Source of the DNA: an uncultured Bacteroidia bacterium
GTDB lineage: Bacteria; Bacteroidota; Bacteroidia; Bacteroidales; UBA932
Direction of reading: 5' to 3'
Assembly: GCA_902769525.1 (NCBI GenBank)
Contig: CACXPG010000006.1
Coordinates: 12,432-76,431 of the forward strand
DNA: 64,000 nucleotides
Part shown: in pieces, positions 2,063 to 51,514 of the stretch
Layout of the letters: every line of letters begins with the position of its first letter
How positions within the stretch are numbered: position 1 is the stretch's first letter
Translations under genes and position numbers: made by a program
Notes under the pieces: model-generated
The model's database searches: none
What the model was told of the DNA's origin: nothing
What the model saw: the letters and a program-made list of their open reading frames with translations, nothing else

Positions 2063-2079
2063 GGCCAACTTAAAGAGAG

Positions 2080-3901: not shown

Positions 3902-3994
3902 GTTATAGCTCACATTAATAGTAGTTAAAAGCATTAATGAATTAGTAGGCTATTTATTATATTTATCTTGCTTTCTCCGATATTAATAAATATT

Positions 3995-4708
3995 ATGAAA
4001 TTTTTATTTTTAGCCTTAGTCTTTATCTTGGCTCTGGATGCCTGTGGGCAGAATAACGGACAAAGCAACGGGCGGGTAAAGGAACCTGTCGATACCACAT
4101 CTGTTCAGTCCCAGATATATAACGAGATTGTTCAGGCTAAGGCTGAGGAACCGGTTGTGGAACAACCTGTTGAGGCTGTTAAACATGAATACCTGTCCCA
4201 GGATCTGGCTACCTTCGACTTTTACGGGAAGGTTGAATCGGTGAATTATGACCAGGGGGAACACGTCCTTCCTGTATGCGTACAGTTTGACACCAACGGG
4301 AAAGTCACTTCAATTGTACGGACTGGCAGCGGGGGAAACAAAGAGAATGCTGAAATCCTTTATGATGGCCTGGACAAGATAGAAACCATCTTGTTTGAGT
4401 CAGACGCCCCATGGATAAATGTTCTGACCTATGGAGATGGTGAAGGATTCCAGGCCCCAGTTACATATACGACTACCAATCAGATGGGCAATTACACAGA
4501 AGTTACCTATCAGAGGGACAGCAATGGTTTAGTGATTGGCATTCAGCGGGAAGAATCCATTCATTTCGCACCAGTTGAAGACAATGATCCTTACACTGTC
4601 GAGTTATCGGATTTTGACAGTAAGGGCAACTGGCTGCTGTGCACCAAGAAGTGGGGAGACTATACTTTTATCATCAAGCGCACAATCACTTATTATCAGC
4701 AAAACTAA
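3995..4708 (+). CDS. hypothetical lipoprotein, paralogue-like to 3128-3901
   Basis: The ORF-track start at 3968 is TTG. The ATG at 3995 gives MKFLFLALVFILALDAC lipobox. The C-terminus is DSKGNWLLCT...KRTITYYQQN. Confidence 0.6.
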   Translation: MKFLFLALVFILALDACGQNNGQSNGRVKEPVDTTSVQSQIYNEIVQAKAEEPVVEQPVEAVKHEYLSQDLATFDFYGKVESVNYDQGEHVLPVCVQFDTNGKVTSIVRTGSGGNKENAEILYDGLDKIETILFESDAPWINVLTYGDGEGFQAPVTYTTTNQMGNYTEVTYQRDSNGLVIGIQREESIHFAPVEDNDPYTVELSDFDSKGNWLLCTKKWGDYTFIIKRTITYYQQN

Positions 4709-21472: not shown

Positions 21473-22672
21473 ATGGATAATAAAACATTAAACGGAAAAG
21501 TAATCCTGAAAAAAGGCAAGGACCAGAGTCTTCAGCGATTTCATCCCTGGGTTTTCTCCGGTGCTGTAGCAAAGATTGAAGGAGATCCCCAGAACGGCGA
21601 TATTGTCAAAGTCCACTCTTACGACGGAACTCTTCTTGGCAAAGGCCATTTCCAGAGGGGTTCCATTATGGTCAGGATGCTTGTCTGGGACGACTCCGCC
21701 ATTGACGCCTCTTTCTGGCAGAACAGGATTCAGGCAGCTTATACTCAGCGATTAAAGACTCTCGTCTCTCTTGGCGAGGGTATGACTGACTGCTTCCGTC
21801 TGGTCCACGGGGAAGGGGACTATCTCCCAGGCCTGATAGTGGACATCTACGGCAAAGTGGCCGTCATGCAGACTCATTCCGCCGGAATGTATGCCGCCAG
21901 AAAAGAAATCGCTGAGGCTATAAAGACTGTTTTCCACAACAACATAGACGCCATTTATTCCAAATCCACTCCTATTGGCACTTTCGTGGGGGATGATGAC
22001 TATCTCTACAAAAAAGACGGTTTCGACGCCACCGGCATCGAGGTAAAGGAAAACGGCTGCAAGTTCTTCGTGGACTGGGAAAAGGGCCAGAAGACAGGTT
22101 TCTTCCTGGACCAGAGAGACAACCGCAACATGGTCGGACGGCTTTCAGACGGCAGGAGAGTTCTCAACCTCTTCTGCTATACCGGCGGCTTTTCCGTTTA
22201 CGCCTTGAGTGGAGGAGCAGAGGAATGCTGCTCTGTAGACAGTTCCCAGCTTGCCATTGACGCCTGCAAAAACAACCTCAAGCTCAACGGCTTCACCCAA
22301 AACTGCGACTGTGTCTGCACCGATGCCATTGAATACCTCAGAAATGTCGAAAAGGGCAGATACGACCTTATGATCGTTGACCCTCCTGCTTTTGCCAAGC
22401 ATCTTAGCGCCAAGCCAAACGCCCTGAGAGCCTACAGGAAACTTAACTCCATGGCCATCGAAAAGGTTGCCCCAGGCGGCATCGTCTTCACCTTCAGCTG
22501 CTCTCAGGTTGTGGACAAAAACGACTTTGCCCTGGCTGTCTTCTCCGCCGCGACAATAGCAAAGCGCAAGGTCAGGATAATCGCGAGAATGACTCAACCA
22601 TCTGACCATCCGGTAGATATCTGCCACCCGGAAGGCGAATATCTCAAAGGCTTGGTCCTTTATGTTGAATAA
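21473..22672 (+). CDS. rlmI: 23S rRNA (cytosine-C5)-methyltransferase RlmI-like
   Basis: N-terminal PUA-like region, SAM motif LNLFCYTGGFSV and DPPAF. Confidence 0.85.
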   Translation: MDNKTLNGKVILKKGKDQSLQRFHPWVFSGAVAKIEGDPQNGDIVKVHSYDGTLLGKGHFQRGSIMVRMLVWDDSAIDASFWQNRIQAAYTQRLKTLVSLGEGMTDCFRLVHGEGDYLPGLIVDIYGKVAVMQTHSAGMYAARKEIAEAIKTVFHNNIDAIYSKSTPIGTFVGDDDYLYKKDGFDATGIEVKENGCKFFVDWEKGQKTGFFLDQRDNRNMVGRLSDGRRVLNLFCYTGGFSVYALSGGAEECCSVDSSQLAIDACKNNLKLNGFTQNCDCVCTDAIEYLRNVEKGRYDLMIVDPPAFAKHLSAKPNALRAYRKLNSMAIEKVAPGGIVFTFSCSQVVDKNDFALAVFSAATIAKRKVRIIARMTQPSDHPVDICHPEGEYLKGLVLYVE

Positions 22673-22686
22673 TCAAAAAAGATTGC

Positions 22687-22694
22687 TATATTTG
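22687..22694 (+). promoter_or_regulatory. -7 box (TATATTTG) upstream of tRNA-Cys
   Basis: TAnnTTTG match 13 nt before tRNA position 1. Confidence 0.4.
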
Positions 22695-22706
22695 CATTCC
22701 CAATCC

Positions 22707-22780
22707 GGTACCATGGCCGAGTGGCTAGGCAACGGTCTGCAAAACCGTGTACAGCAGTTCGATTCTGCTTGGTACCTCCA
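22707..22780 (+). tRNA. tRNA-Cys (anticodon GCA), CCA encoded
   Basis: Folded by hand. 7-bp acceptor GGTACCA/TGGTACC, anticodon stem ACGGT/ACCGT with loop CTGCAAA, T-arm AGCAG-TTCGATT-CTGCT, discriminator U73, CCA. Confidence 0.95.
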
Positions 22781-22790
22781 ATGAACAAAT

Positions 22791-22821
22791 AACCCCTTCC
22801 AGAACGTCTCTGAAAGGGGTT
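22791..22821 (+). terminator. hairpin after tRNA-Cys
   Basis: 8-bp stem aacccctt/aaggggtt with a 15-nt loop. Only a weak T-rich tail follows. Confidence 0.4.
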
Positions 22822-23066
22822 TCCTGTTATAAGACCTGTTCTGTTTGGGCCTATCTTGAGACTGAAAATGAGACTGGAAAAATCTGGTCGCAAATTGAGG
22901 CTTAACTCCGATTACAACAATGAGTTGTGCTGTATTTACGACATTGTGATACTAACAAGAGGGTAAAATAGGGTATTGAATGGTGAAAAGAGGATTTGAG
23001 GTATTTGAGACGATTTAAATATTTTAAAGGGGTGTTTGAAATGCTCTAATTTCTAAGTAGAATCAT

Positions 23067-23074
23067 TAAATTTG
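23067..23074 (+). promoter_or_regulatory. -7 box (TAAATTTG) upstream of the type IIG gene
   Basis: TAnnTTTG match 30 nt before the ATG at 23104. Confidence 0.4.
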
Positions 23075-23103
23075 TATGATTCGCAATAAGAAACAAAGTA
23101 CGC

Positions 23104-26100
23104 ATGGATTTAAAACAATATATCTCCGAATTAAACCTTCAGTACAAAACAGGTATTGCTCGTGAACACTCTTATCGTCCTGCTTTGAAGGATCTCTTGC
23201 AGAGTTTGTTGCCCAAAATGGTTGTTACAAACGAACCTGCACACATTGAGTGTGGCGCACCTGATTATATCATCTCAAGGAAGAATGATCATCTTCCTGT
23301 GTTCTTTGTAGAAGCAAAGGATGTTGGAGATACAGATCTTGACGGAAGAAGTAAGAAACAACATAAGGAACAATTTGATAGATATAAACAGGCTCTAGAC
23401 CATATCATCTTCACGGACTATTTAGACTTTCATTTGTATGAAAATGGAGAGTTCGTTGATAGTGTAAGAATTGCCGAAATTAGAGGCAATAAGATTGTTG
23501 GGATTTTTGAAGCAGAAGAAAAGTTCATTGGCATGATTCATCATCTGGGTACTTCTGGTATTCAGCGAATTACTTCAGCACCTCGTCTGGCTAAATTGAT
23601 GGCTGGCAAAGCTCGTCTATTGGCAAATATCATTGAACAGGCAATGAACGACGAGACGCAATCATATGATAATGACAATCTTCAAGGACAATATAATGCC
23701 TTTAAGGATGTACTTATTCAGGACTTAAAAAAGGAAGACTTTGCAGATATCTATGCCCAAACGATAGCCTATGGTTTGTTTGCCGCACGTCTGCATGATG
23801 ATACCCCCGAGGACTTTAGCCGTGAAGAGGCAGCTCGCCTTATTCCGAAAACTAACCCTTTCTTACGTCAGATATTCAACAATCTTGCAGGGAATGATCT
23901 AGATGAGCGAATATCGTGGGTTGTCGATGATTTAGTTCTTGTGTTCCAAGCCACTAACCTTCAGAAATTGATGGACAGTTACAAAAGGAATAAACTCCAT
24001 CATGATCCAATGATTCATTTTTATGAGGATTTTTTGTCTGAATACAACCCTAAGTTGCGAAAATCGAAAGGTGTTTGGTATACGCCACAACCAGTAGTAA
24101 GTTTCATAGTAAGGGCTGTTGATGAGATTCTTCAAAAAGAATTCAGTCTAGCTGACGGATTAGCAGATTACTCTATGGTAGAACGTGACGTTGCTGTTGA
24201 GCAGAGTCGCGACAGACGCACAATAGATGGTATGAAGCATATGAAACAGCGATTCCATAGAGTGCAAATACTTGATCCTGCCACAGGCACAGGTACTTTT
24301 TTAGCAGAAGTTGTGAATCAGATATATGATCGCTATCGCAACAATCAAGGAATCTGGCAACAGTATGTTGAACAGCACCTATTGCCTCGTCTGAATGGTT
24401 TCGAGATTCTAATGGCTTCGTATGCAGTAGCACACCTGAAGATCGACATGTTACTATCAGAAACAGGTTATCAGCATAAATCAGATAAGCGACTTCATAT
24501 ATATTTAACCAACTCATTAGAAGAAAGCAACAACGAGCCGCGCACTCTTTTTGCTCAGTGGTTGAGCCGTGAAGCGACGGAGGCAAATGATATCAAACGA
24601 GATCGCCCTGTTATGGTAATGATAGGCAATCCTCCGTACTCCATCAGCAGCCAGAATAATGGAAGTTGGATAACAAATCTCACTGCCCTTTATAAAAAAG
24701 ATTTGAATGAAAGAAATATCCAACCCCTTAGTGATGATTACATTAAATTCATTCGCTTAGGCCAGTATTATGTTGAAAAGAATGGAGAGGGTATACTTTC
24801 TTATATCAGCAACAATGGCTTTATTGATGGTACTACTCACCGCCAGATGAGATTGTCTTTAATGCAAGTGTTTGATGATATTTATATTATTGATTTACAT
24901 GGAAATAGCCGCAAACATGAAATAGCTCCTGATGGAAGTATAGACGAAAATGTTTTTGATATTATGCAAGGAGTAAGCATTAATATTTTTGTTAAATCAG
25001 GAGGAAAAGCAAAAGGTAAATATGCAAATGTTTATCATCATAGTTTATATGGTACTCGAGAGGATAAGTATTCTTTTTTGAATAGAGCTTCATTGGCAAC
25101 GATTCCTTTTAAAAAACTGAAACCAGTAGAACCTTATTTCTTCTTTTCTCCCAAAGATTTTTCTGTTCAAGGAGAGTATGAAAGAGGATTCAAGATAGAT
25201 GAGTTAATGCCTAATAATTGTATTGGAGTTGCAACGGGTAAGGATGATACTCTAGTAAGAATTAGTGAAGACGAGTTCAATTCTATGAATATGACTAATA
25301 CTGATTATATTCAGAAGTATTCCTATCGACCTTTTGACGAACGATATATATATTATGACACTTCTATAGTGCAAAGAGCCAGAGAACGGATAATGAGGCA
25401 TATGAAGAAGGATAATATTTCCTTATTGTGTACATCTAAAAATAGACAGTTAAGTACATTGTATTTTTCTGTATCTCATAATATATCGGATAGGCATTAT
25501 TTAGATTCATCTTCTGACAGTATGAGTGTCTTCCCTCTTTATCTCTATAGTTCAAATATGGGTATAGAAGACCGTACTGTTAATTTCAATACTGGGTTGT
25601 ACGTAAAAATTGCCGAAGGGCTAAATTTCTATCCATCTTTTGATAAGAGGGTCGGTGATTCTACGAGGGGGTACGATGGGGTGCTTACTCCTCAAGATCT
25701 TTTCGACTACATCTTTGCCATTTTGCACAATCCTAGTTATCGCGAACGTTACAAAGAATTCCTCAAGATAAGTTTTCCTCGAATACCATATCCGAAGGAT
25801 AAACAAAAGTTCCATGTTTTAGTGGAAATGGGTACTAAGCTAAGAATGCTGCACTTGATGCAAAATTTACCTTCTCAGACGGGCATTTCTTTCCCAGAAT
25901 CAGGTTCTTTGAGGATAGATCGACTTCAGTGGCAGAATAATCGTGTTTATATCAACGCTGAGCAATACTTTGAGGGTGTTTCAGAATTAGCCTGGAACTT
26001 CTTCATTGGTGGATACCAACCTGCTCAGAAGTGGCTCAAAGACCGTAAGGGGCGCACATTGAATTTCAATGATATCCTCCATTATGGCCGCATTATTTAT

Positions 26101-26160
26101 GTTCTTGAACAGATTGATAAGATTATGAAAGAGATTGACGAACTGAATCCTTTTAATTAA
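23104..26160 (+). CDS. type IIG restriction-modification enzyme (fused PD-ExK nuclease, gamma-class N6-adenine MTase, C-terminal specificity region)
   Basis: N-terminal GAPDYII(D54)...FFVEAK(E70,K72) fits PD-(D/E)xK. Also GVWYTPQPVV, SAM motif ILDPATGTGTF (aa 389-399) and NPPY at aa 509-512 (nt 24628-24639). 1018 aa. Confidence 0.8.
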   Translation: MDLKQYISELNLQYKTGIAREHSYRPALKDLLQSLLPKMVVTNEPAHIECGAPDYIISRKNDHLPVFFVEAKDVGDTDLDGRSKKQHKEQFDRYKQALDHIIFTDYLDFHLYENGEFVDSVRIAEIRGNKIVGIFEAEEKFIGMIHHLGTSGIQRITSAPRLAKLMAGKARLLANIIEQAMNDETQSYDNDNLQGQYNAFKDVLIQDLKKEDFADIYAQTIAYGLFAARLHDDTPEDFSREEAARLIPKTNPFLRQIFNNLAGNDLDERISWVVDDLVLVFQATNLQKLMDSYKRNKLHHDPMIHFYEDFLSEYNPKLRKSKGVWYTPQPVVSFIVRAVDEILQKEFSLADGLADYSMVERDVAVEQSRDRRTIDGMKHMKQRFHRVQILDPATGTGTFLAEVVNQIYDRYRNNQGIWQQYVEQHLLPRLNGFEILMASYAVAHLKIDMLLSETGYQHKSDKRLHIYLTNSLEESNNEPRTLFAQWLSREATEANDIKRDRPVMVMIGNPPYSISSQNNGSWITNLTALYKKDLNERNIQPLSDDYIKFIRLGQYYVEKNGEGILSYISNNGFIDGTTHRQMRLSLMQVFDDIYIIDLHGNSRKHEIAPDGSIDENVFDIMQGVSINIFVKSGGKAKGKYANVYHHSLYGTREDKYSFLNRASLATIPFKKLKPVEPYFFFSPKDFSVQGEYERGFKIDELMPNNCIGVATGKDDTLVRISEDEFNSMNMTNTDYIQKYSYRPFDERYIYYDTSIVQRARERIMRHMKKDNISLLCTSKNRQLSTLYFSVSHNISDRHYLDSSSDSMSVFPLYLYSSNMGIEDRTVNFNTGLYVKIAEGLNFYPSFDKRVGDSTRGYDGVLTPQDLFDYIFAILHNPSYRERYKEFLKISFPRIPYPKDKQKFHVLVEMGTKLRMLHLMQNLPSQTGISFPESGSLRIDRLQWQNNRVYINAEQYFEGVSELAWNFFIGGYQPAQKWLKDRKGRTLNFNDILHYGRIIYVLEQIDKIMKEIDELNPFN

Positions 26161-26166
26161 AAGAAC

Positions 26167-26427
26167 ATGTTGTCAGATAACTCAATTCCAAAAGATTGGA
26201 GACATAGTTTCTCTAAAGCCACAACCCTCTCAGAAGTCGCAGACCTCTTTAACGAAGCAGAGCAATACTCTGATTTTGATTGCTGTGCTGAATTAGAAGT
26301 ATGGTGCAAAGACCACCCTGCAAAAATGGCAGGTTTAGATAAGCCTATATACATATTCGCTGAGACCGAGACAGAGCAACTTGTTTACAGGGATTCAGAG
26401 AGAAAATGGTTCTTAATGTCCAAATAG
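26167..26427 (+). CDS. hypothetical small acidic protein
   Basis: 86 aa, starting 6 nt after the R-M stop. About 17 D/E versus 10 K/R by my count. No signal peptide or recognisable domain. Confidence 0.5.
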   Translation: MLSDNSIPKDWRHSFSKATTLSEVADLFNEAEQYSDFDCCAELEVWCKDHPAKMAGLDKPIYIFAETETEQLVYRDSERKWFLMSK

Positions 26428-26458
26428 ATTGTTGAAGAATTAGATTGTTGAAATACAA

Positions 26459-27676
26459 ATGAAAAGGCTTTCTTTGTTTTTATTAATTCTATTGTATTCT
26501 ATTGATGCATTTGCCCAACATACACATTCGCGTGGTGGAAATTCATTTTATTGGGCATTCGTTGGTGCTGTTGGAGCTGGTATATGTTATATTGTTTTTT
26601 TAACTATCTCATTTTTACCAACATTATTCAAAAGGAAAAAGAAATTATTAAAAACTGAGGCAGAGATTAAAGCTATTAATACAGAGGTAAATACTGTAGA
26701 ATCTGATGTAAAGAAAGAGTCTGTTGCTATTCTAAAGAAAACAAACTATAGAGATTCAGATAACACTAAGAACAATTTTCATAGAAGCGGTAATATCGCG
26801 AATGTCTGGAAGAATAAACGGACACTTATAGCCGTTGTTCTATATCTGTTTTTGTTATTATCATCAGTATTATTAGTCAATAATCATATTGACAACAAGC
26901 GTATAAAGCTTTATCGTGACTTATTTGGGCGAATTTTAAATGCATTTGACGGATACCGTGCTGAAGCCTTAAATAAAGATATCGAAGAATATTTTCTTGA
27001 ATACAAAGAGGTACCAATACCTCCATTCCCAGTAGATGGCTCGAAAATTGATCGCTATCATTGGGATAATATGTTTTCAGGTATTGAACATTTGTATAAG
27101 ATTAAGGGAGGCAATTGGGTTATGAGTGGCATACAATTTCAGCCTATTTGTGATAATAGTGGTGTTTGCATTACTGAGGGTATTGAAATTTATAAATATA
27201 TGCCATATATGATATGTGTGCCGCAGGGCTTTGACTTCAACACTCAAATTGCACGAGCTATTCTAAATAAATCATTGGAAAAGGTTTATTGCGAGCCAGA
27301 GCAATTTGATAAGCGATATGAATTAACATATACAAGGGAGGAGAATGAGAATAAGTATTATAAAATACAAGGGCGGCTGTATCTTAGAGATAGCGTACTA
27401 ATGGAAAGAAATTCCCATCATTATTCTGAAGCTACAGGTAATGAACCTATATATGAAGACGGTAGATTTATGGGGTTTTGGTATGGAATGGATTTCATTA
27501 ACCATTACAGAGTGCTTTATCGATGTGTTGAAGAATCGTATTGGATAGTTGAAGAAAAAAGAGAAGCATCGGTAAAAGATAGGTTTTTGCTATATGGAGG
27601 AGCTTTTCTAATTCTTTCTTGTTTACTTTCCTTGTTCCTTTTAAGGGAAAAGAGAAAGAATAAACTACAGTCATAA
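26459..27676 (+). CDS. hypothetical membrane protein (signal peptide plus 3 TM, about 235-aa extracytoplasmic Cys-containing domain)
   Basis: Signal peptide ending in AFA-Q. TM helices are at about aa 30-57, 123-141 and 373-392. Lys/Arg-rich segments follow TM1 and TM3. No recognisable domain. Confidence 0.6.
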   Translation: MKRLSLFLLILLYSIDAFAQHTHSRGGNSFYWAFVGAVGAGICYIVFLTISFLPTLFKRKKKLLKTEAEIKAINTEVNTVESDVKKESVAILKKTNYRDSDNTKNNFHRSGNIANVWKNKRTLIAVVLYLFLLLSSVLLVNNHIDNKRIKLYRDLFGRILNAFDGYRAEALNKDIEEYFLEYKEVPIPPFPVDGSKIDRYHWDNMFSGIEHLYKIKGGNWVMSGIQFQPICDNSGVCITEGIEIYKYMPYMICVPQGFDFNTQIARAILNKSLEKVYCEPEQFDKRYELTYTREENENKYYKIQGRLYLRDSVLMERNSHHYSEATGNEPIYEDGRFMGFWYGMDFINHYRVLYRCVEESYWIVEEKREASVKDRFLLYGGAFLILSCLLSLFLLREKRKNKLQS

Positions 27677-27821
27677 ATATGCAAAGGAGCCTAAATTACA
27701 TTTTAAGTATGTAGCACTTATCATTTTATGTGCCTGTGCCTTTATTCCTGAAATGCTAAGAGAAAAGCGATAGTTTAAGTGATGACAAAGATGATTTGAG
27801 ACATAGATTAAATAGCTGTTT

Positions 27822-29087
27822 ATGAATTGTAGGTGTGGCAAAGAATATATTCCTAAAGATTCAATTATTTGTCCGAATTGCGGTAAAGTTTTAACGAATG
27901 TTTGCAGGAATGGAAAATATGGTCTGATAGGTACAAAAGGGGATGTTATCATTCCTTGTGTTTATGAAGAATTTGGTTATTTGGTAAATGGTATGGTAAT
28001 GGTTAAAAGGGATGGAAAATATGGATTCATAAACTCAAAAGGGGAAGAAACCGTATCGTGCATATATGATAAAGCATATCAATTCAGAGAGTGTGGTTTA
28101 GCCAATGTATACAAAGATGGGAAATGTGGATTAGTTGATACTGAAGGTAATTTGGTTGTTCCACTTTCTGATTACGATTATATTCTGGCAAAAACAGAAA
28201 AATTTTATGAAATTACTAAAAGTAGATTAAAAGGGGTTTATAAATCTGGAGTAGGGGAAATACTTCCATGTGATTATGACAAGACAGAGTTGTTTATTGA
28301 TGATGGGTATATCTTTGTAAAAAAAGATGGCCTTTATGGATTAATAAGCCTTGATGGGAAATTGAAGGTTCCCTGCAGTTATCGATGTTTGTCTCCAACA
28401 AGAATAGTTAATGGTCTTTTCTATGTAAAGTGTAATGCACATTATTGGGGATTAATTGATGAGAATAATCGAGAGATCTTAAGATGTGTATATGATAAAA
28501 TAGATGTATTAAATGATAATCTTATTAGCGTAGAAATCAATGGAATGAGTGGTTTCATAGATTTGTCCGAAGAAATTATGCCCCACAATTCTGTAATTTT
28601 TTGCGATATGGTAGCACGGGGCAATAAAGATGGCGAGGCTTTTTTTATAGATGACGCTGGTAATGTTTATTCCAACAGAATGTCACAATGCAGAGGTTTT
28701 AGTGTAGGAGAAAGAGAAGAATGGTTTTTTGGAGATGTTCTTGTTGTAAGAAAATCTTTATCATATGCTGTTTATGATAAAATGGGAAGAGCAATTGTTC
28801 CTTTTGATAAATATGGTTACATAGATTTCTTTTATAAGGGACTTGCACGTGTTCGTGCTAATAGCGAAAACCCTACAATAGTCAATCTCAATGGAAGAGC
28901 GATTAGATTACTTGATAATATAGATGATTGCAAATGGGGCATTATTAACATGCTGGGCGAGGAGGTTCTTCCTGCTGAATATGATAGAATTTGGCGCTTT
29001 TCTGGTAAGGTTTTCCCTACAATAATCGCAGAAAAAGATGGGACAATTAAGCATATTCCATATGAAGATTTAAATCATTATTTGTAG
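27822..29087 (+). CDS. zinc-ribbon / WG (KWG)-repeat protein
   Basis: N-terminal CRCG-x11-CPNCG. About 8-10 degenerate repeats of the type DGKYGFINSKGEE / DGKCGLVDTEGNLVVP / CKWGIINMLGEEVLP. Confidence 0.7.
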   Translation: MNCRCGKEYIPKDSIICPNCGKVLTNVCRNGKYGLIGTKGDVIIPCVYEEFGYLVNGMVMVKRDGKYGFINSKGEETVSCIYDKAYQFRECGLANVYKDGKCGLVDTEGNLVVPLSDYDYILAKTEKFYEITKSRLKGVYKSGVGEILPCDYDKTELFIDDGYIFVKKDGLYGLISLDGKLKVPCSYRCLSPTRIVNGLFYVKCNAHYWGLIDENNREILRCVYDKIDVLNDNLISVEINGMSGFIDLSEEIMPHNSVIFCDMVARGNKDGEAFFIDDAGNVYSNRMSQCRGFSVGEREEWFFGDVLVVRKSLSYAVYDKMGRAIVPFDKYGYIDFFYKGLARVRANSENPTIVNLNGRAIRLLDNIDDCKWGIINMLGEEVLPAEYDRIWRFSGKVFPTIIAEKDGTIKHIPYEDLNHYL

Positions 29088-29204
29088 GCACTGTCCTAGA
29101 GTTTGTTTAAGAGGTTAACCTATGAGTATAATTGTGAGAATAGAACATGTAGAAACATATATTATAGTTATCTGTTGACGTAAATAATTGAAATTAAACT
29201 AAAT

Positions 29205-29243
29205 AAAAGATTGGTTGTGTTTTGCGAGTATCCAATCTTTTTT
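29205..29243 (+). terminator. hairpin plus T-run after the WG-repeat gene
   Basis: 10-bp stem aaaagattgg/ccaatctttt with a 17-nt loop, running into TTTTTT. Confidence 0.55.
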
Positions 29244-29260
29244 ATATCTTTGTACAGTTC

Positions 29261-29283
29261 AAAAGGGAGATTCTCTCCCTTTT
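29261..29283. terminator. tight hairpin, likely terminator of the minus-strand hicAB operon
   Basis: Perfect 10-bp stem aaaagggaga/tctccctttt with a 3-nt loop. T-runs on both strands. Confidence 0.5.
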
Positions 29284-29317
29284 CTTATGCAGTAAGTGAC
29301 ACTTTTCTGGATAGCCC

Positions 29318-29722
29318 TTAAAACATAGACACAGACAGAAGCCTGCGTCCCAAGTCGTGAAGAGCATTCTCTATTTTCTTGACCTGCTTGTCTGAAATAG
29401 GGAAATCGCCGCATTTATAATGCCTGAGCAAAGATGAGTTGACTCCCGCCATTTTTGCGAATTTAGTGGTGTTGATTACATCCAGTTCATCAAATACTGA
29501 AGATACGTCATATCTGAATTCAAACTTGGGATTCAACATTTCATCGGGGATTTTCAGTCCTCTATCAGGATATATGCTTTTGATTTCTTCCCAAGAGTTA
29601 AAGAAATCTGTTTTTGCTTCCTCAACACTTTTCCCTTCGCCAATAATCACACCATGCTTCAGGTTATCGGTGTAAACGGAAAAACCTTTGTCGTCTTTTT
29701 CTATTAATACTCTGACTGTCAT
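29318..29722 (-). CDS. hicB: HicB family antitoxin with C-terminal HTH
   Basis: The N-terminus VLIEKDDKGFSVYTDNL..IGEGKSVEEA is HicB-like. The C-terminal FAKMAGVNSSLLRHYK is an HTH. Sits directly downstream of hicA. Confidence 0.85.
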   Translation of the reverse strand: MTVRVLIEKDDKGFSVYTDNLKHGVIIGEGKSVEEAKTDFFNSWEEIKSIYPDRGLKIPDEMLNPKFEFRYDVSSVFDELDVINTTKFAKMAGVNSSLLRHYKCGDFPISDKQVKKIENALHDLGRRLLSVSMF

Positions 29723-29758
29723 AATAACTAGTATTTGTTGAGCAAATACGATTTCCGA

Positions 29759-29944
29759 TTAAAAACCGATTTGCTTTTTCAATTTTGCTAAAAGCCCTTT
29801 TCTTATTTCAGAATTCCAGTGTCTTTCAATCTGAAGATAATCTTCTGGCCTGTCCTTGTGAACATAGATGTCATGATTGCTCCCGTGTCTATGTAAAACA
29901 AAGCCTTTTTCTTTGGCAATCTTTAGCAGTTCATTCCATTTCAT
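29759..29944 (-). CDS. hicA: HicA family mRNA-interferase toxin
   Basis: 61 aa, LLKIAKEKGFVLHRHGSNHDIYVH... typical YcfA/HicA fold sequence. Confidence 0.9.
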   Translation of the reverse strand: MKWNELLKIAKEKGFVLHRHGSNHDIYVHKDRPEDYLQIERHWNSEIRKGLLAKLKKQIGF

Positions 29945-30176
29945 TTTATAGTGACAATGTAAAGGTAACGCATTTATGCGATATTCGAATAATTCTCGAA
30001 ACTTTTTTCTGCCACGATATTAAACAGATTATTCTTTGAATGGATGCCAAACGATACAATAGACTGTGTCCGCCCCCAAAGTTTTTACGTTAACGCTTCC
30101 CCCAGCCATTTTATCTGTCGTTAGAGTATATTTCTTATATTTACACTCAGAAAGAAACTATTAAAAACAAACAAAG

Positions 30177-30671
30177 ATGAAAGCCACACTTAGAGTTACT
30201 GTTGTCATGATGATCATGGCATTTCTGTTCTCCTCTTTGAAGCCCAATGTAGTTTACGGGCAGAAAGCAACGTTCAAGAACTGCAGTCTTGAGATGAACG
30301 TGAAAGACAATAATGGAAAGAAGAAAATGGTATGCCATTTCTCAGCCGATTTTACGGGAATGAAAAAGCATGATGTCCAGATTTATATGGAAATTGAAAG
30401 TCCAAAAGGCACTCTACACGAGTATCTGGATGATGATGAAGGAGGTGAGGGAAGTATGCGTTTACCTGTCCAGAAGGTCAAGAACTTCAAAAACAAGAAC
30501 AAGACAGACAAATTTGTGCTCAATGACAAAATCATCTGGATGTTTAACTCAGATCTTCACCCTAAGAAGGGCAAGCACACTTATTATGTACGCCTTGTCG
30601 CTTACGATGCCCAGACCTATGATGAAATAGGGCACTCTAACTACATGTCATACACAATGACCGGGAAGTAA
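30177..30671 (+). CDS. hypothetical secreted protein
   Basis: Signal-like N-terminus (MMIMAFLFSSLKPNVVYGQ). No recognisable domain. Confidence 0.55.
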   Translation: MKATLRVTVVMMIMAFLFSSLKPNVVYGQKATFKNCSLEMNVKDNNGKKKMVCHFSADFTGMKKHDVQIYMEIESPKGTLHEYLDDDEGGEGSMRLPVQKVKNFKNKNKTDKFVLNDKIIWMFNSDLHPKKGKHTYYVRLVAYDAQTYDEIGHSNYMSYTMTGK

Positions 30672-30806
30672 CATTTTTTTCGTTTATTGATATTCCAGCC
30701 CTTTGACCGCTATCCCGATGTTGATTGGGATGTGCTGCATTTTGCCTAGGGCGTTTTCTCTGAGATAGCTGCTTTTCAGGTAAGGCCGCCGTTTGACGGA
30801 AAAGAA

Positions 30807-30842
30807 ATCCCCGAGACGTTTGCCTCGGGGATCTGTTTTTTT
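30807..30842. terminator. bidirectional rho-independent terminator
   Basis: 9-bp GC-rich stem atccccgag/ctcggggat with an 8-nt loop. T7 run on the plus strand and a T-rich tail on the minus strand. Lies between convergent genes. Confidence 0.65.
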
Positions 30843-30875
30843 CTTATTTAAGTTTTGTCTGTGTCTTTACTGATT

Positions 30876-31247
30876 CTAGAGCTTGTCGAAATCAACATCG
30901 GTGAAGTCGTTTCTCTCTGCCTGAGGAGCGGCGTTGTCAGAAGGTTCTGTGTAAACTCTCTCCTGGACAGGGCATTTTTCCTTTATGAACTGTACAACTT
31001 CCTGCAATCCGGCGGCGAACTTCTCGAAATCTTCCTTGTAGAGGAAAATCTTGTGCTTGTCGTATGAAAAGCGTCCGTCCTTCTCCACTTTGCGCTTGCT
31101 CTCTGTTATGGTCAGATAGTAGTCGTTGTTCTTTGTGGCCTTTACATCGAAGAAGTATGTCCTCTTGCCGGCTCTTACAGGCCTAGAATAAATATCATCC
31201 CCACTTTTCTCCTGTGAGAAAGCATTGTCAAAATCTTCTTGATACAT
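30876..31247 (-). CDS. DUF3276 (PUR-alpha-like ssDNA/RNA-binding) protein
   Basis: RPVRAGKRTYFFDVKATKNNDYYLTITESKR...KIFLYKEDF is the characteristic conserved Bacteroidetes sequence. Confidence 0.8.
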   Translation of the reverse strand: MYQEDFDNAFSQEKSGDDIYSRPVRAGKRTYFFDVKATKNNDYYLTITESKRKVEKDGRFSYDKHKIFLYKEDFEKFAAGLQEVVQFIKEKCPVQERVYTEPSDNAAPQAERNDFTDVDFDKL

Positions 31248-44000: not shown

Positions 44001-45212
44001 ATGGATTTACTGTTTGAGCGGCATTCTGAATATCTTTCTGGTGTTCCTACAGCTTTTGAGCGGGAACTTATGTTTAAAATCGATTGGGAGTCAAGGCTGG
44101 TCCTGATCAGAGGACCTAAAGGTGTTGGCAAGTCTACTTTGATGCAGCAGTATATTCTTAAGCATTATGGTATTTCTGACAGGCATGTGCTATACTGTTC
44201 TGCAGACTCTTCATATTTTGCTTCGCACACGTTGCTTGACACTGCTGCAGCATTTGTCCGCCAGGGTGGCAAGCATCTGTTCATTGATGAGATTCATAAA
44301 TATGAGGGTTGGAGCCGGGAGATTAAAGAGATTTACGATTTATATCGCGATCTTAAAGTGGTTTTGAGCGGCTCGTCCTTGCTTCAGTTGAATGACGGGC
44401 AGGCAGATCTTTCCAGACGTCAGGATATATATGATATGTCCGGCCTTTCTTTCCGAGAGTATTTGTGGTTCAGAACCGGTAAGAAAATTGAACCGGTACG
44501 ATTGGATCAGCTGTTAGAAAATGCTTCTGAATATTGTTTGGGAATCAGGTCTTTATATCGTCCTCTGGAGTTTTTTGAAGATTATTTGCGATTTGGCTAT
44601 TATCCGTATTCTTTTGAAAAAAAGAATACTTATAAAACACTGGTAGAGAGCGTTGCCAACTATATCATCGAGGTAGAACTGACGAAGTTTCGCGGTGTAA
44701 ACATGGTCAACACAAGGAAAATCAAAGCTCTGCTGAATGTGATTTCTGAAATGTTGCCTTATCAAGTTGATTTGTCAAAGCTTTCTTCCAGTGTCAGCAT
44801 AGACCGTGTTACCTTAGTCCGGTATCTGAGATTTATGGATGAAGCAAAGCTTATCAGGAATCTTTTTACTGAGATTGATATGATTACAGATTTACAGAAA
44901 CCTGACAAGATACTTCTGGATAATACTAACCTTAGCTATGCTTTTGCTATAAAGGAACCTGAAAGAGGTACTTTGAGGGAGACATTTTTCTGCAACCAAC
45001 TTTCCTCAGCTGGGCATATTGTAGAATATGGCGGGCTTCAAACAGGAGACTACCGTATAGACAAAAGCATTGTAATTGAAGTAGGAGGGGCAGGTAAAGA
45101 TTTTTCTCAGATTAATTCCAAAGATATTGCCAATGCAGCATTGGCATTGGATGACATAGATATGGCTTCAGGCAAGAAGATCCCATTGTGGGCTTTCGGA
45201 TTTCTCTATTAG
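44001..45212 (+). CDS. AAA family ATPase (COG1373-type, AAA_14 plus DUF4143-like C-terminus)
   Basis: Walker A GPKGVGKST, Walker B LFIDEIH and C-terminal GDYRID...VIEVGG. Confidence 0.8.
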   Translation: MDLLFERHSEYLSGVPTAFERELMFKIDWESRLVLIRGPKGVGKSTLMQQYILKHYGISDRHVLYCSADSSYFASHTLLDTAAAFVRQGGKHLFIDEIHKYEGWSREIKEIYDLYRDLKVVLSGSSLLQLNDGQADLSRRQDIYDMSGLSFREYLWFRTGKKIEPVRLDQLLENASEYCLGIRSLYRPLEFFEDYLRFGYYPYSFEKKNTYKTLVESVANYIIEVELTKFRGVNMVNTRKIKALLNVISEMLPYQVDLSKLSSSVSIDRVTLVRYLRFMDEAKLIRNLFTEIDMITDLQKPDKILLDNTNLSYAFAIKEPERGTLRETFFCNQLSSAGHIVEYGGLQTGDYRIDKSIVIEVGGAGKDFSQINSKDIANAALALDDIDMASGKKIPLWAFGFLY

Positions 45213-45237: not shown

Positions 45238-46335
45238 ATGAACCTTGTAGTTATTCGTCTTCTCAACCAGCAGCTTGCGGCACCTCAGTTCACCGATCCG
45301 GCTGAGGTTGTACGCCATTTATGCGCCATCCAGGCACAGGAATACCGCATGATGCGCTGGGCTGTGGCCATGCGCACCAAAAAGCCTTCCGCCAAGGCGT
45401 TCAGGGAGGCTTTTGACAGCGGAAGCATCATCCGCCTTCACCTTATGAGGGGCACCTGGCAGCTGGTAAGCGCACAAGATTACTGGTGGATGCTGGACCT
45501 TTGCGCTCCCAAGGCCATTGCCGTCACTAAAGGCTGGATGGCCAGCAACAAGATCTCCATCCCGGCTAAAGAACAGGCCAAAATCAGAGATATTCTTTCA
45601 AGAACAGCATCGGACATGGGAAGCGCAACTAAAGAAGATTTCAAACAGGCTCTGAAAGAGAAAGATATAACTATGGATGACCACAGGCTGTCCTACCACA
45701 TCCGTATGGCCGAGTTTTCCGGCACTCTCTGCAGCGGAGACCTCCTTCCCATGAAAGCCACATACTCTCTGGTATCAAATAAAGTAGGCCCACACCCTGG
45801 CAAAACCGACAGGAACGAGGCCCTTATGAACCTCACCCGCAAGTATTTCCAGAGCCGCCAGCCTGCCACTCTCGAGGACTTTGTCTGGTGGTCCGGCCTT
45901 AATGTCAGCGATTGCAGAAGGGGCATTGAACTCCTTAGCACTTCAATTCATAAAGAGCATCTTAATGGCCGTGATTTCTACCTTACCGACAACTGCCGCA
46001 CACGAGGCTTCCGCCATGGCAAATACTTTCTTATTCCTCCATACGATGAATATCTGATTGGCTACAAAAGTAGAGACATAGTCCTGCCCCAGGAACATCG
46101 TCACAAGGCCCACAACAACAGCGGCATCTTCCAGCCCGTCATCGCTCACGACGGCATCATCTGTGGCAACTGGGCTCCGTTCAAACCAGAACTTCAGGCG
46201 GAATTCTTCATCCCGTCCACACCCGTAGCCAAGCATAGCAGCTCCACAAAATCCTATCCTGAGCCACTCCAGCACGCCTGGCATGTTTACAACCGCTTAT
46301 TTTCTTGCCCTGGTAATTTCAACCTGAAGTCCTAG
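45238..46335 (+). CDS. winged-helix DNA-binding protein, YcaQ/AlkZ-like (DUF1006) DNA glycosylase family
   Basis: N-terminal LLNQQL...AIQAQEYRMMRWAVAMR signature; 365 aa. The 3' end overlaps higA by 39 nt. Confidence 0.75.
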   Translation: MNLVVIRLLNQQLAAPQFTDPAEVVRHLCAIQAQEYRMMRWAVAMRTKKPSAKAFREAFDSGSIIRLHLMRGTWQLVSAQDYWWMLDLCAPKAIAVTKGWMASNKISIPAKEQAKIRDILSRTASDMGSATKEDFKQALKEKDITMDDHRLSYHIRMAEFSGTLCSGDLLPMKATYSLVSNKVGPHPGKTDRNEALMNLTRKYFQSRQPATLEDFVWWSGLNVSDCRRGIELLSTSIHKEHLNGRDFYLTDNCRTRGFRHGKYFLIPPYDEYLIGYKSRDIVLPQEHRHKAHNNSGIFQPVIAHDGIICGNWAPFKPELQAEFFIPSTPVAKHSSSTKSYPEPLQHAWHVYNRLFSCPGNFNLKS

Positions 46336-46608
46336 TGCATTGATTATGCGGTAGAAAGTTCCGACACTTGGGACCATCACTCCGTTTTCAATCTTTGAAA
46401 TGTAGCTTTTGGTGCTTCCTATTCTTGATGCCAATTCATTTTGAGTCACACTCTCTCCTACACGAGCATCCTTAAGAATCTGTCCTGAATAAAAAGCATA
46501 AGCTTCTTCTTCTGCCTTGATTCTCTCTTTACTTCCCGGAGTGCCGAATTCTGTATCTAGAACAATATCGTAATCTCTTATTTTATTGTCATTTACATGT
46601 TTTTTCAT
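46297..46608 (-). CDS. higA: XRE-family HTH antitoxin (HigA-like)
   Basis: HTH SVTQNELASRIGSTKSYISKIENG. Immediately downstream of, and overlapping, the toxin gene. Confidence 0.8.
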   Translation of the reverse strand: MKKHVNDNKIRDYDIVLDTEFGTPGSKERIKAEEEAYAFYSGQILKDARVGESVTQNELASRIGSTKSYISKIENGVMVPSVGTFYRIINALGLQVEITRARK

Positions 46609-46945
46609 AGTATGCTTTCTTTATTAGTTTTGCTTTGTCAATCTCATTTTGGGGTGTTTGTTGAGTCTTTTTCTTAAAACCGTTAAACAGTACAACAACA
46701 TTGTCTGAGTCAAAAATGAAGAAAGTCCTGAATATGTTCCCTTCATATTCTGTCCTAAGTTCATAAATGCCTTCATCTATGTGTTTTACAAACTTGGCAG
46801 GTATCCTGTTTTGTGTTTTCAGGAGAAGTAGACCATATTTTACCTTTTGTTGCTGTTCAAGTGTTAAGGTTTTCATAAAAGCCTCAAAGTATCCTCCGTA
46901 TGTCAAGATTCGTCTTGTCGATTGCAAAGGTAATAAAGGTTGCAT
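46589..46945 (-). CDS. higB: RelE/ParE-superfamily toxin, Gp49/HigB-like (DUF891)
   Basis: FEAFMKTL...KV.YGL.LL......P.KFVKHI.EGIYELR.EY.GNIFR.FF.FD pattern typical of Gp49-like toxins. Confidence 0.8.
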   Translation of the reverse strand: MQPLLPLQSTRRILTYGGYFEAFMKTLTLEQQQKVKYGLLLLKTQNRIPAKFVKHIDEGIYELRTEYEGNIFRTFFIFDSDNVVVLFNGFKKKTQQTPQNEIDKAKLIKKAYYEKTCK

Positions 46946-46956
46946 TATTATGCAAC
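46939..46956. promoter_or_regulatory. inverted repeat GTTGCAT-N4-ATGCAAC overlapping the higB start codon
   Basis: 7-bp arms read directly. The higB ATG (46943-46945, minus strand) lies inside the left arm. Confidence 0.4.
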
Positions 46957-47170
46957 TTGTCGCTGCTTTTTTATTCTGTTTTCTTTGCTGTTTTTTTTGT
47001 TTGATTTTTCTTTCCCTTTTTATCGTTCTTCTCCTTCATCATTCTTTTTGATATTTCAATGATTCAAAGGAAAAGGATCCCGCAGATAAGCGGTTGCAAG
47101 ACTGTAAAATTTACCCGACAGAGTTAAAAATTTTGTGGTTAACGTTTTTGATCAACGTAAAATAACAATC

Positions 47171-47737
47171 TCAGCGACTATACTTTGCCTTGATTTCCTG
47201 ACTGAAATACTTGTCCCTGGCTTTTCTCTCGGCTTGTTCTTTACGGCTCTTCTCCCTTAACTGTCTGGCCAAGGCAATCCTCTCCCGATATTCCTTTCCA
47301 CCGGACACAATCTCATCATTGACCCTCAAAACAGTTTCCTCAAAAACTGCTTTTTTCAGCTGGCACTCCCACACAATCACCACCTTCCATCCCAGTGCCT
47401 CGAGCCTTCTCCATACTGCAGAATCGCGATTCTTGTTTCTTTCAACCTTTGCCGTCCAGAACTCCACATTGCTCTTTGGCACCGTGTACAGACTGCACCC
47501 CTGGTGCCCGTGCCAGAAGCATCCGTGCACAAAAACCACTGTCCTGTACCGCCCAAACACTATATCCGGCTTACCTGGCAATCGTGGATCATTCACTCTG
47601 TACCTTAACCCCAGATGCCACAGCGCTCTCCTTAGCCGTATTTCCGGCTTTGTCCCCGATGAGTGTATCCGCGACATACAGTAATGCCGCTGCGCCTTGG
47701 TCATCTTGTCTGCCATTCCACTTGCTGATGAAATCAA
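47171..47737 (-). CDS. vsr: very short patch repair endonuclease (start may be 47716 or 47704)
   Basis: TKPEIRLRRAL...GKPDIVF...VFVHGCFWHGH signature, plus an about 40-aa basic C-terminal tail. Confidence 0.9.
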   Translation of the reverse strand: MISSASGMADKMTKAQRHYCMSRIHSSGTKPEIRLRRALWHLGLRYRVNDPRLPGKPDIVFGRYRTVVFVHGCFWHGHQGCSLYTVPKSNVEFWTAKVERNKNRDSAVWRRLEALGWKVVIVWECQLKKAVFEETVLRVNDEIVSGGKEYRERIALARQLREKSRKEQAERKARDKYFSQEIKAKYSR

Positions 47738-47807
47738 AGTAAAGTTACAAATATTCTTTTCTCAGCGATTATTTACTGTTTGACATAAACTGTCAATCTT
47801 GTTTCCA

Positions 47808-47815
47808 TATCTTTG
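47808..47815 (+). promoter_or_regulatory. -7 box (TATCTTTG) upstream of the NADAR gene
   Basis: TAnnTTTG match 29 nt before the ATG at 47844. Confidence 0.4.
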
Positions 47816-47843
47816 CACCAGAGAATCAAAACCCGAATCAGCA

Positions 47844-48659
47844 ATGCAAACTCTCCAAAACAAGTACCTCTTTTTCTGGAGCCACTCGGAAAGAGGCAGC
47901 AACGTTACCAAGGCCTGCCTGAGCCAATGGTATCCTTCATACATGATAATAGACAACGTTCCTTATTGCAATGTAGAACAGTATCTTATGGCTGAAAAGG
48001 CTCGCACTTTCGGCGATACGGAAACAGAACAGAAGATTCTGAAGACAAGCGATCCAAAGGAAATCAAGAAACTCGGCCGTGAAGTAAAGGATTATGATGA
48101 TCAAATATGGGCAGCAAAGCGTAAAGATGTTGCATTCAAGGCCAACACTGTCAAATTCGCCTCCCACACGCACCTAAGGAAATTCCTCTTTGAAACAAAG
48201 ATCTGGACTCTTGTTGAAGCCAGTCCTTACGACCGCATCTGGGGCATTGGCTACAACGAGGCTCATGCCCTCAAGGTCAGCCCAGACCAGTGGGGCCAGA
48301 ACCTTCTTGGCCAAGTCTTGATGGAAGTAAGGGCCAACCTGAAGAAGCCTTACCTCAAATACTGCCGCTATTATAAAGACGACGGTTCAAGCCAACTTAA
48401 CCGTCCTGGCGATAATACCTCGTTTGCCTCATACGAATTTGCCTGGATTGTTGATGAAATTGCCAACCCGCTCTCTATCAGCAGTCTTCTGTCTGAATAC
48501 TTTGCCTACGGCCATGAGTTCTTCAATATGAACGATGGTGTTCCAATCACTCTCAAAGCCACGCTTTTCAACCGTTGGGTAAAAATGTCTGGTTTCCAAA
48601 TTGACAAAGATGGCTTCCAGACTTGGTACAAGGAGCATTATTTGAAATCTAAGGCTTAA
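47844..48659 (+). CDS. NADAR (DUF1768/YbiA-like) domain protein with about 110-aa unknown C-terminal extension
   Basis: LFFWSH....LSQWYP....ID...Y...EQYLMAEKA..FGD...IWGIG signature in the first about 170 aa. The remainder is unrecognised. Confidence 0.8.
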   Translation: MQTLQNKYLFFWSHSERGSNVTKACLSQWYPSYMIIDNVPYCNVEQYLMAEKARTFGDTETEQKILKTSDPKEIKKLGREVKDYDDQIWAAKRKDVAFKANTVKFASHTHLRKFLFETKIWTLVEASPYDRIWGIGYNEAHALKVSPDQWGQNLLGQVLMEVRANLKKPYLKYCRYYKDDGSSQLNRPGDNTSFASYEFAWIVDEIANPLSISSLLSEYFAYGHEFFNMNDGVPITLKATLFNRWVKMSGFQIDKDGFQTWYKEHYLKSKA

Positions 48660-48725
48660 CACCCAAGAATGGCATATAGACAATACAAATATTACAGTCC
48701 GTTTGCCTTTTGTTCAGCGATTAGT

Positions 48726-48745
48726 TAAATTTGCTTGAGCAAGCA
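48726..48745 (+). promoter_or_regulatory. -7 box TAAATTTG overlapping small palindrome TGCTTG-AG-CAAGCA upstream of the R-M operon
   Basis: Read directly. The -7 box is at 48726-48733 and the palindrome at 48732-48745. The ATG is at 48777. Confidence 0.35.
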
Positions 48746-48776
48746 TATATTTAAATAATGTAATTTATTCAAGGAC

Positions 48777-51513: not shown

Positions 51514-51514
51514 T

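Follow-up and report, generated by a model that had tools for sequence, protein, structure and literature searches.

Three neighbouring genes in an uncultured Bacteroidia bacterium (Bacteroidota; Bacteroidales; UBA932) raise the question of whether they form one new defence system or only share a location. The genes, here called g1, g2 and g3, lie in a 64,000-nt stretch of forward-strand DNA (the window; NCBI GenBank assembly GCA_902769525.1, contig CACXPG010000006.1, positions 12,432 to 76,431), between the gene for a Type IIG restriction-modification (R-M) enzyme and a hicAB pair. The original prediction, made from the sequence alone, had held them to be a single unannotatable cassette, a candidate defence or abortive-infection module made up of a repeat-protein sensor (g3), a membrane effector (g2) and a small acidic regulator or DNA mimic (g1). 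Comparison with related loci favoured a different reading (with a probability of roughly 70%), in which the region is mosaic cargo of a strain-variable island adjacent to a tRNA-Cys gene and the three genes are functionally independent modules, not one system. Cargo is swapped between conserved anchors of this island in an uncultured Bacteroidales lineage, the flanking core proteins having named matches in Bacteroidales MAGs only. Whereas g3, the IIG enzyme and HicA belong to known families, g1 and g2 represent unnamed families and are uncharacterised residents of defence islands.

The exact g2 protein was found on 17 contigs, all of which carry the same island between an rRNA methyltransferase/tRNA-Cys side and hicBA-DUF3276-NusB-YajC. 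Outside these identical copies, 24 related loci were compared (prefixed L; single homologous proteins are prefixed P), comprising 16 loci with a g2 homologue, 7 further g1 contexts and 1 locus with a near-identical g3. Queries of g1, g2, g3, the IIG gene and hicAB were run by tblastn against related loci, and g1, g2 and g3 were recovered together solely in the identical-island copies. Searching the neighbours at the 16 g2-homologue loci by blastp with the same queries added just two weak g3 matches (L030 and L034), and gene calling with clustering placed no g1, and no WG-repeat gene directly beside a g2 homologue, at any of the 16. The neighbourhood comparison that the original prediction had proposed for g2 and g3 did not bring them up together except in copies of the identical island. 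The three genes assort independently; co-occurrence and synteny across unrelated genomes, by which a multi-gene defence system is recognised, were not found for g1-g2-g3.

Three alleles were recovered for one tRNA-Cys hotspot. The window allele runs from the tRNA gene through the IIG gene, g1 and g2 to g3 and then hicBA. In L023, the tRNA gene is followed by the gene for a 400-aa protein with transmembrane (TM) segments and an endonuclease-like motif (DIEIDEPY...RFSE), then by g3 at 90% identity and hicB. The L020-22 allele contains two lipoprotein genes, g1 at 81% identity, the gene for a 459-aa TM and nuclease-like protein and hicBA, and is without g3. The window was aligned by blastn with L023 at 22692-22800 (the tRNA) and at 27820-29755 (94% identity), the second block beginning 2 nt before the g3 ATG. 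Alignment with L020 on the left flank ended at window position 23047, and within the island only g1 (26196-26409, 85%) and hicBA (29319-30108, 91%) were matched. From these breakpoints, g3 and hicBA therefore form one block and IIG-g1-g2 a replaceable block that is itself mosaic. Flanking core genes are 73-76% identical to those of L020, and the higher identity of the island anchors g1 and hicBA (85% and 91-94%) suggests recent horizontal exchange or recombination at the anchors. The claim of a defence island stands as far as the setting goes, a low-GC, strain-variable island beside tRNA-Cys with a IIG enzyme and hicAB, and fails in the claim of one cassette, which the breakpoints split between g3-hicBA and IIG-g1-g2.

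The protein encoded by the alternative cargo genes (L023:406-1608 and L020:7323-8702) combines two TM segments with a coiled coil and, at the C-terminus, an endonuclease-like motif (YFPDLV...DIEIDEPY...IHY...W.V.RFSE). Over the nuclease-like domain the two copies share 34% identity (E=7e-20); neither had a match in Pfam, PADLOC or PHROGs, and the protein has the look of one more orphan candidate for defence. Further to the right, past hicA, the window encodes a secreted orphan protein of 164 aa (window 30177-30671) where the L020 allele has a Peptidase_C1 gene (L020:9737-10825), and the variable region therefore reaches beyond hicBA, to about 30845.

A single new defence or abortive-infection system made up of g1, g2, g3 and perhaps the IIG enzyme, comprising a WG-repeat sensor, a membrane effector and an acidic regulator or DNA mimic, would suit the shared strand, the gaps of 6 and 31 nt, the lack of a recognisable promoter motif before g2 or g3, the low-GC island in which an R-M enzyme gene and hicAB flank the genes, and the lack of a match to any known system. 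On the last point the original prediction was borne out, as zero PADLOC-DB v2 families were matched by g1, g2 or g3 at E<=0.1 and none in NCBIfam or PHROGs. Such a system is nevertheless already largely refuted by comparative genomics and must be considered very improbable: the three genes are never together beyond the identical island, an allele breakpoint falls exactly at the start of g3, g3 stands beside an unrelated gene in L023, g1 is followed by other genes in L017, L020, L024, L025 and L026, and 16 loci carry a g2 homologue with neither partner. A phage origin was also considered and was rejected on the lack of PHROGs matches and of g1 or g2 relatives on IMG/VR viral contigs.

Directly upstream of g1, an R-M system is found in 6 of its 8 distinct contexts. 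These systems are of unrelated architecture, and g1 tracks R-M genes of several types, not g2 or g3. The gene is preceded by an ISP-like IIG enzyme in the window, an MmeI-type IIG enzyme (PF20473/20466/20467) in L026, a Type I HsdS (PF01420) in L024, Type III Mod/Mod/Res and two small open reading frames (ORFs) in L017-19, a PLD-SNF2 helicase, a IIG methyltransferase, an inverted Eco57I/TaqI_C specificity module and a resolvase in L014-16, and a 1316-aa ResIII+Eco57I enzyme in L038-43; the two contexts without R-M genes are L020-22 and L025. The gene 3' of g1 differs each time (g2; a MORN_2-like secreted protein; the TM and nuclease-like protein; DUF488 genes with caspase and CHAT; Big_2 and fimbrillin-like proteins). 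The most fitting reading thus ties g1 to the IIG gene that precedes it and to neither g2 nor g3. It can also be its own transcription unit, because a TAnnTTTG-type motif lies 5' of g1 in L014, L024 and L025.

In L017 and L026, a constant distance separates g1 from the backbone of a mobile element, and the cargo in between varies; on this element g1 delimits one side of a cargo slot. The backbone lies 3' of g1 on the opposite strand (DUF4313, DUF3871, AAA_24, an 87-aa ORF, DUF3853/AAA_25/DnaB_C), and the cargo between is either a MORN_2-like 531-aa protein or a Big_2 and a fimbrillin-like protein. DNA similarity around g1 ends at the boundaries of the coding sequence. A conserved recombination or regulatory site flanking g1 was rejected on this ground, and the tandem TAGATTGTTGAA found in the g1-g2 spacer occurs in the window only. 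In L016 the methyltransferase gene was called as pieces of 245, 507 and 282 aa, and in L014 and L015 as a single 1033-aa gene; the L014-L016 locus has the appearance of a Type IIG or BREX-like system subject to phase variation by inversion.

The g1 protein is strongly acidic, as had been claimed (exactly 17 D/E against 10 K/R; pI 4.66), and has no hydrophobic segment. Its 23 homologues (63-100% identity) share invariant W11, R12, a DFDCC motif (C39, C40), C47, K59/P60 and W81, with H50 near-invariant, and the resulting CC-x6-C-x2-H cluster could bind metal. The AlphaFold2 model is confident (predicted local distance difference test (pLDDT) 89.7, predicted template modelling score (pTM) 0.78) and consists of three short helices and a three-stranded sheet. 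Foldseek gave no match to it in the PDB (best E=0.95) or among the viral structures of BFVD (best E=0.23), PDB sequences searched with a profile returned nothing, and no family was matched in Pfam (E<=0.1), NCBIfam, PADLOC or PHROGs. In being small, acidic and tied to R-M systems, g1 is like the DNA-mimic anti-restriction proteins ArdA and Ocr and the R-M controller (C) proteins. Unlike ArdA and Ocr, it lies 3' of the host's own R-M genes and not on a phage or plasmid leading region; unlike both groups, it has the conserved CC-x6-C-x2-H cluster and occurs beside R-M systems of all three kinds, Type I, Type III and IIG. Identity with an ArdA/Ocr-type mimic was rejected on the lack of a fold match in PDB and BFVD and of IMG/VR relatives, and identity with a C protein on the lack of a helix-turn-helix or other Pfam match at E<=0.1.

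On this reading, g1 belongs with the upstream IIG gene and is a conserved, autonomously folding, acidic and Cys-bearing protein that would be a generic R-M accessory. It might modulate restriction or self-toxicity, for example during establishment of the island in a new host; alternatively, it may be just a conserved gene flanking R-M cargo slots on Bacteroidales mobile elements. Some R-M-related function of g1 is put forward tentatively, at odds somewhat below even. We infer every biochemical role proposed here for g1 and, below, for g2.

The second module, g2, was predicted to be an envelope protein. Its N-terminus, MKRLSLFLLILLYSIDAFA|Q, is a signal peptide; in Bacteroidota, a Gln typically comes first after cleavage by signal peptidase I, which makes cleavage at AFA|Q plausible. 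Hydrophobic segments were located at 35-53, 122-140 and 377-395, and the loop at 56-121 has 17 K/R against 8 D/E. The order is signal peptide, short periplasmic stub, TM1, Lys-rich cytoplasmic loop, TM2, periplasmic domain of ~235 aa, TM3 and basic C-terminal tail. The signal peptide, the three TM segments, the Lys-rich loop and the basic tail had all been described correctly; the extracytoplasmic stretch contains 5 Cys (231, 237, 253, 278, 356) and not the 6 that had been counted. The topology is supported by the family, because zinc ribbons of g2 relatives always fall on the predicted cytoplasmic side.

No significant match to g2 was found in Pfam, NCBIfam, PADLOC or PHROGs, the weak Pfam match to DUF3391 (16.9 bits) lying under the 27.8-bit cut-off. 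A search of 5.8 billion proteins returned 22 proteins at 37-44% identity, and an exhaustive hidden Markov model search of 1.84 billion representatives returned ~17 core-matching clusters at 50% identity; among 185,579 species genomes the family was found in 3 loci. The profile search was flooded by a retropepsin module (4891 matches, E<=0.001), and usable matches were those to profile positions 150-505. In family alignments, the conserved core consists of TM2, the ~235-aa periplasmic domain and TM3. The variable attachments are a signal peptide with a retropepsin-like aspartic protease (PF13650/PF13975), a C- or N-terminal zinc ribbon and a ~130-aa C-terminal helical domain. Most g2 homologues start with the signal peptide and retropepsin module; g2 itself is without the protease and has, after the signal peptide, a short conserved stub of 13 residues instead (QHTHSRGGNSFYW / QHPHSRGGNPFYW). 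The bacterial retropepsin-like aspartic proteases (PF13650/PF13975; TIGR02281 as the source names them) are therefore related to the head of most homologues and not to g2.

The signal-peptide and retropepsin-like head is common to thousands of proteins of 160-650 aa (P0064-P0195 among them). Most of the 4891 matches cover just profile positions 1-155, and the head is therefore a conserved periplasmic protease module placed on very diverse C-terminal regions.

The AlphaFold2 model of g2 is moderate (pLDDT 66, pTM 0.47, 22 sequences). Foldseek found no match to it in the PDB (best E=0.17), so that the structural check proposed with the original prediction ended without a fold match for either orphan, and nothing relevant came out of a profile search against PDB sequences. 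A cysteine peptidase-like His/Cys dyad (H211/C253) in the ecto-domain was considered and rejected; it is invariant in the 22 closest proteins and lost in the wider family, where P0049, P0058 and P0062 have G or T at the position of C253. No catalytic residues are conserved across the family alignment.

At the 16 loci, g2 homologues are single copies in tightly packed same-strand arrays. The placement of g2 among defence genes in the original prediction was supported at these loci. A DUF2971 gene (PADLOC candidate PDC-S31, E=6.6e-18) lies upstream of retropepsin-type homologues in 6 of the 16 loci, immediately 5' in L005/6, L011, L012, L028 and L030 and one gene further in L033. AbiH (PF14253, E=9e-33) was found near homologues in L027 and L029, a reverse transcriptase in L034, NERD and a UvrD-like helicase in L005, and AAA_21 with RloB in L007; further neighbours are HAD_SAK_2, Metallophos, RlaP, radical SAM/SPASM, a ThsB-like protein, RNase_T and HTH_17 excisionase-type genes. 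DUF2971 is an ADP-ribosyltransferase-like domain. The lactococcal system Aristaios, whose antiphage activity was validated experimentally, consists of this one gene (PMC11381338), and DUF2971 has DarT and AbiGi as relatives (PMC12522546). The gene typifies the neighbourhood of g2-family relatives and is absent from the window; Aristaios acts as a single gene in Lactococcus (PMC11381338), and nothing marks the g2 family as its partner. By this recurrent proximity to defence genes the g2 family is a defence-island resident, a placement that comes from loci of which several are related and that carries no enrichment statistic.

In L034, a 529-aa reverse transcriptase (L034:1113-2702; RVT_1, E=5.7e-15; YRDD motif) is encoded directly 3' of a WG-repeat protein and two genes 5' of the g2 homologue, and may be a defence-associated reverse transcriptase.

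g2 would thus be a single-gene unit, an inner-membrane protein whose periplasmic domain is held between two TM helices with both ends of the core in the cytoplasm. It could act alone at the envelope as a defence, exclusion or abortive-infection factor with the periplasmic domain as its business end, either blocking phage DNA entry or sensing envelope perturbation and damaging the membrane. RexB, AbiZ-type and Sie-type proteins are single membrane proteins of defence islands or mobile elements that act at the envelope. The likeness of g2 to them is a functional analogy only, with no sequence or fold similarity, and in g2, unlike in them, TM helices enclose a large periplasmic domain. That g2 serves in defence is suggested by its genomic context and is proposed with reserve, as one possibility that we hold to fall short of an even chance.

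For g3, the label 'unannotatable' was wrong. The protein scored 169.1 bits against Pfam WG_beta_rep (PF14903; cut-off 25.6, E=1.7e-50) over 6 scored stretches and is, to judge from this match, an ordinary member of that very large known family. The predicted zinc ribbon is present (C3, C5, C17 and C20, CxC-x11-CxxC; a weak Zn_ribbon_3 match at residues 4-24), and the repeats, of xG[LFVIY] type, number about 8 by eye, in keeping with the earlier count, and 6 by Pfam. More than 2800 homologues were retrieved, the sole close relative being P0196 at 90% and the next at <=36% identity. Layouts with a zinc ribbon and WG repeats (PF13240/PF13248 with PF14903) recur among homologues annotated as 'WG repeat-containing protein', and WG repeats are also fused to TIR, Ser/Thr kinase, caspase, Hsp70, TonB_C and zinc-ribbon modules. 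A literature search returned nothing on the function of the bacterial WG_beta_rep family. g3 would probably be a ligand- or protein-binding cytoplasmic scaffold that moves with hicBA.

Gene fission, by which the g3 ribbon would be the detached C-terminal ribbon of g2 relatives P0002-5, was rejected: it is contradicted by the breakpoint at the g3 start and by g3 retaining its ribbon beside an unrelated gene in L023, and the ribbons are of the generic CxxC-x(10-11)-CxxC form. WG-repeat and neighbouring proteins at L030:951-2522, L033:240-1418 and L034:299-1156 end in a shared acidic C-terminal motif, DAF/YEGDPxAxWNTD, of which the protein at L034:2787-3398 has a GFDGDYESLGY variant; it may be a tail signal that these array proteins have in common, or serve in interaction.

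Several observations weigh against independent modules with roles in defence. The spacing of 6 and 31 nt and the lack of a recognisable promoter before g3 fit one transcript, and co-regulation is possible. No structural match assigns an activity to g1 or g2, and with a g2 model of moderate confidence a recognisable fold could be missed. Short metagenomic contigs make up many of the loci, and several loci are near-identical copies, so that independent observations are fewer than loci. WG-repeat proteins occur 1-3 genes upstream of g2 homologues in 3 of the 16 loci (L030, L033, L034), and surface proteins (BspA leucine-rich repeat, dockerin and lipoproteins) lie near some g2 homologues, a context that is not purely defensive.

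The WG-repeat neighbours leave some room for a loose link between g2 and WG proteins, in the form of a two-component logic in which cytoplasmic WG-repeat sensors act with interchangeable membrane-anchored partners (g2 here, the TM and nuclease-like protein in L023). In both alleles that carry g3 it lies 3' of a membrane protein, the fusions of WG repeats to TIR, Ser/Thr kinase and caspase are those expected of a sensor module, and the cytoplasmic zinc ribbon of some g2 relatives resembles the N-terminal one of g3. However, 13 of the 16 loci have no nearby WG protein, those present are neither adjacent to the g2 homologue nor g3 orthologues (best 37% identity over 91 aa), and the TM and nuclease-like protein has no WG partner in L020. 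As the WG family is huge and common in these islands, chance proximity is likely, and zinc ribbons are generic; the arrangement is considered improbable, if less so than a single three-gene system.

The surface proteins bear on a further alternative, in which g2 and g3 are envelope, surface or housekeeping-like accessories (for niche adaptation, interbacterial competition or immunity) that hitch-hike in a recombination hotspot. The lipoproteins and secreted Peptidase_C1 among the other cargo of the hotspot agree with this, as do the BspA-type, dockerin, fimbrillin-like and Big_2 neighbours of the g2 family and a g2 that is mostly periplasmic, with no conserved catalytic residues and no relatives on IMG/VR viral contigs. 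Against it, the neighbours recur in defence or conflict roles (AbiH, DUF2971, reverse transcriptase, NERD/UvrD, RloB, HAD_SAK_2, RlaP), and the g2 family is distributed patchily and by horizontal movement, as is typical of defence genes. Non-defence cargo is judged unlikely, though it is the strongest of the competing explanations, and mosaic cargo of independent modules is retained.

The layout of the locus is given in Table 1. The ORF list confirmed the three same-strand ORFs at their predicted coordinates, with the IIG gene as a fourth on the same strand and gaps of 6, 31 and 145 nt from it onward. The AT-rich composition of the three genes was likewise confirmed (GC 33-40%, against 47-50% in flanking core genes). 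The upstream gene is the Type IIG enzyme that had been proposed (PADLOC REase_MTase_IIG, E=4.9e-290; Pfam Type_ISP_C, E=3e-68, with N6_Mtase, Eco57I and MmeI_Mtase). Its translation has an N-terminal PD...EAK motif in a PD-ExK-like N-terminus, followed by an N6 methyltransferase and a Type ISP C-terminal specificity domain; as predicted from these domains, nuclease, methyltransferase and specificity functions are fused in one polypeptide, which defines Type IIG. The hicAB neighbour was recovered in part, with HicA supported by Pfam (HicA_toxin PF07927, E=1.1e-11) and a putative HicB, a 134-aa ORF matching nothing in Pfam or NCBIfam, labelled from its position and joint conservation with hicA.

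Table 1. Features of the tRNA-Cys-adjacent island and its borders (window coordinates; columns: feature, positions, strand, size or evidence, interpretation)
Feature	Positions	Strand	Size or evidence	Interpretation
tRNA-Cys (GCA)	22707..22780	+	ARAGORN; Rfam tRNA 61 bits	Left anchor of variable hotspot
TAAATTTG	23067..23074	+	Bacteroidetes -7 promoter motif match	Candidate promoter for IIG-g1-g2
Type IIG restriction-modification enzyme	23104..26160	+	1018 aa; PADLOC, Pfam	
g1, acidic orphan protein	26167..26427	+	86 aa	Putative R-M-linked accessory gene
Tandem TAGATTGTTGAA x2	26422..26452	+		In g1-g2 spacer
g2, envelope protein of rare unnamed family	26459..27676	+	405 aa	
g2-g3 spacer	27677..27821	+	145 nt	Replaceable IIG-g1-g2 block ends right at ~27820
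g3, zinc ribbon and WG_beta_rep repeats	27822..29087	+	421 aa	Predicted cytoplasmic repeat protein, hicBA-linked
AT-rich hairpin and T-run	29200..29246	+		Possible terminator common to convergent g3 and hicBA transcripts
hicB-like (29318-29722) and hicA (29759-29944)	29318..29944	-		Right-hand conserved anchor

The IIG gene, g1 and g2 are probably co-transcribed, because they are separated by only 6 and 31 nt and TAAATTTG sits 30 nt 5' of the IIG start codon; the count of this motif across the window is that of chance, and its position alone is suggestive. A shared transcript within an island does not make the three genes one system. A motif search found no Bacteroidetes -7 motif in the g1-g2 or g2-g3 spacers, and a sigma-70 promoter scan was uninformative (33 matches against 29.9 expected, chance level). 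The hairpin that had been described as closing the unit was found (AT-rich arms at 29200-29214 and 29232-29246, a 17-nt loop, then TTTTTT) and was not called by the terminator scan. The two TAGATTGTTGAA copies, at 16-nt spacing, fill the g1-g2 spacer and overlap the g1 stop codon; no such tandem was present downstream of g1 in the other loci. Neither an att-like direct repeat of the tRNA 3' end nor an integrase was found in 22500-31000, and the Rfam scan gave the tRNA as its sole match. Elsewhere in the window, further low-GC stretches were noted at 2001-4000, 44001-45000 and 46001-58000 (29-44%, against about 50%), the longest being 49001-56000 (32-37%), and these are probably additional horizontally acquired islands.

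For the search for new defence systems, the result removes a false lead, as there is no new three-gene system here. The most interesting lead is the linkage of g1 to R-M genes, since its occurrence with at least four R-M architectures hints at a type-independent accessory function; to our knowledge, no such function has been described. The second is a rare, periplasm-exposed membrane family without a Pfam model that is found among Abi, ADP-ribosyltransferase and reverse transcriptase defence genes, often beside an Aristaios-like gene. In the boldest version, which we consider unlikely, g1 would stand for a new class of ~85-aa metal-binding accessories to Type I, III and IIG systems in Bacteroidales, and g2 for a new single-gene family of envelope antiphage proteins. 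Proteins of the g1 class would then tune restriction, for example by protecting the host genome as an R-M island establishes or by gating restriction activity. The locus itself illustrates how cargo is exchanged at a tRNA-adjacent hotspot in uncultured Bacteroidales, between the conserved anchors g1 and hicBA.

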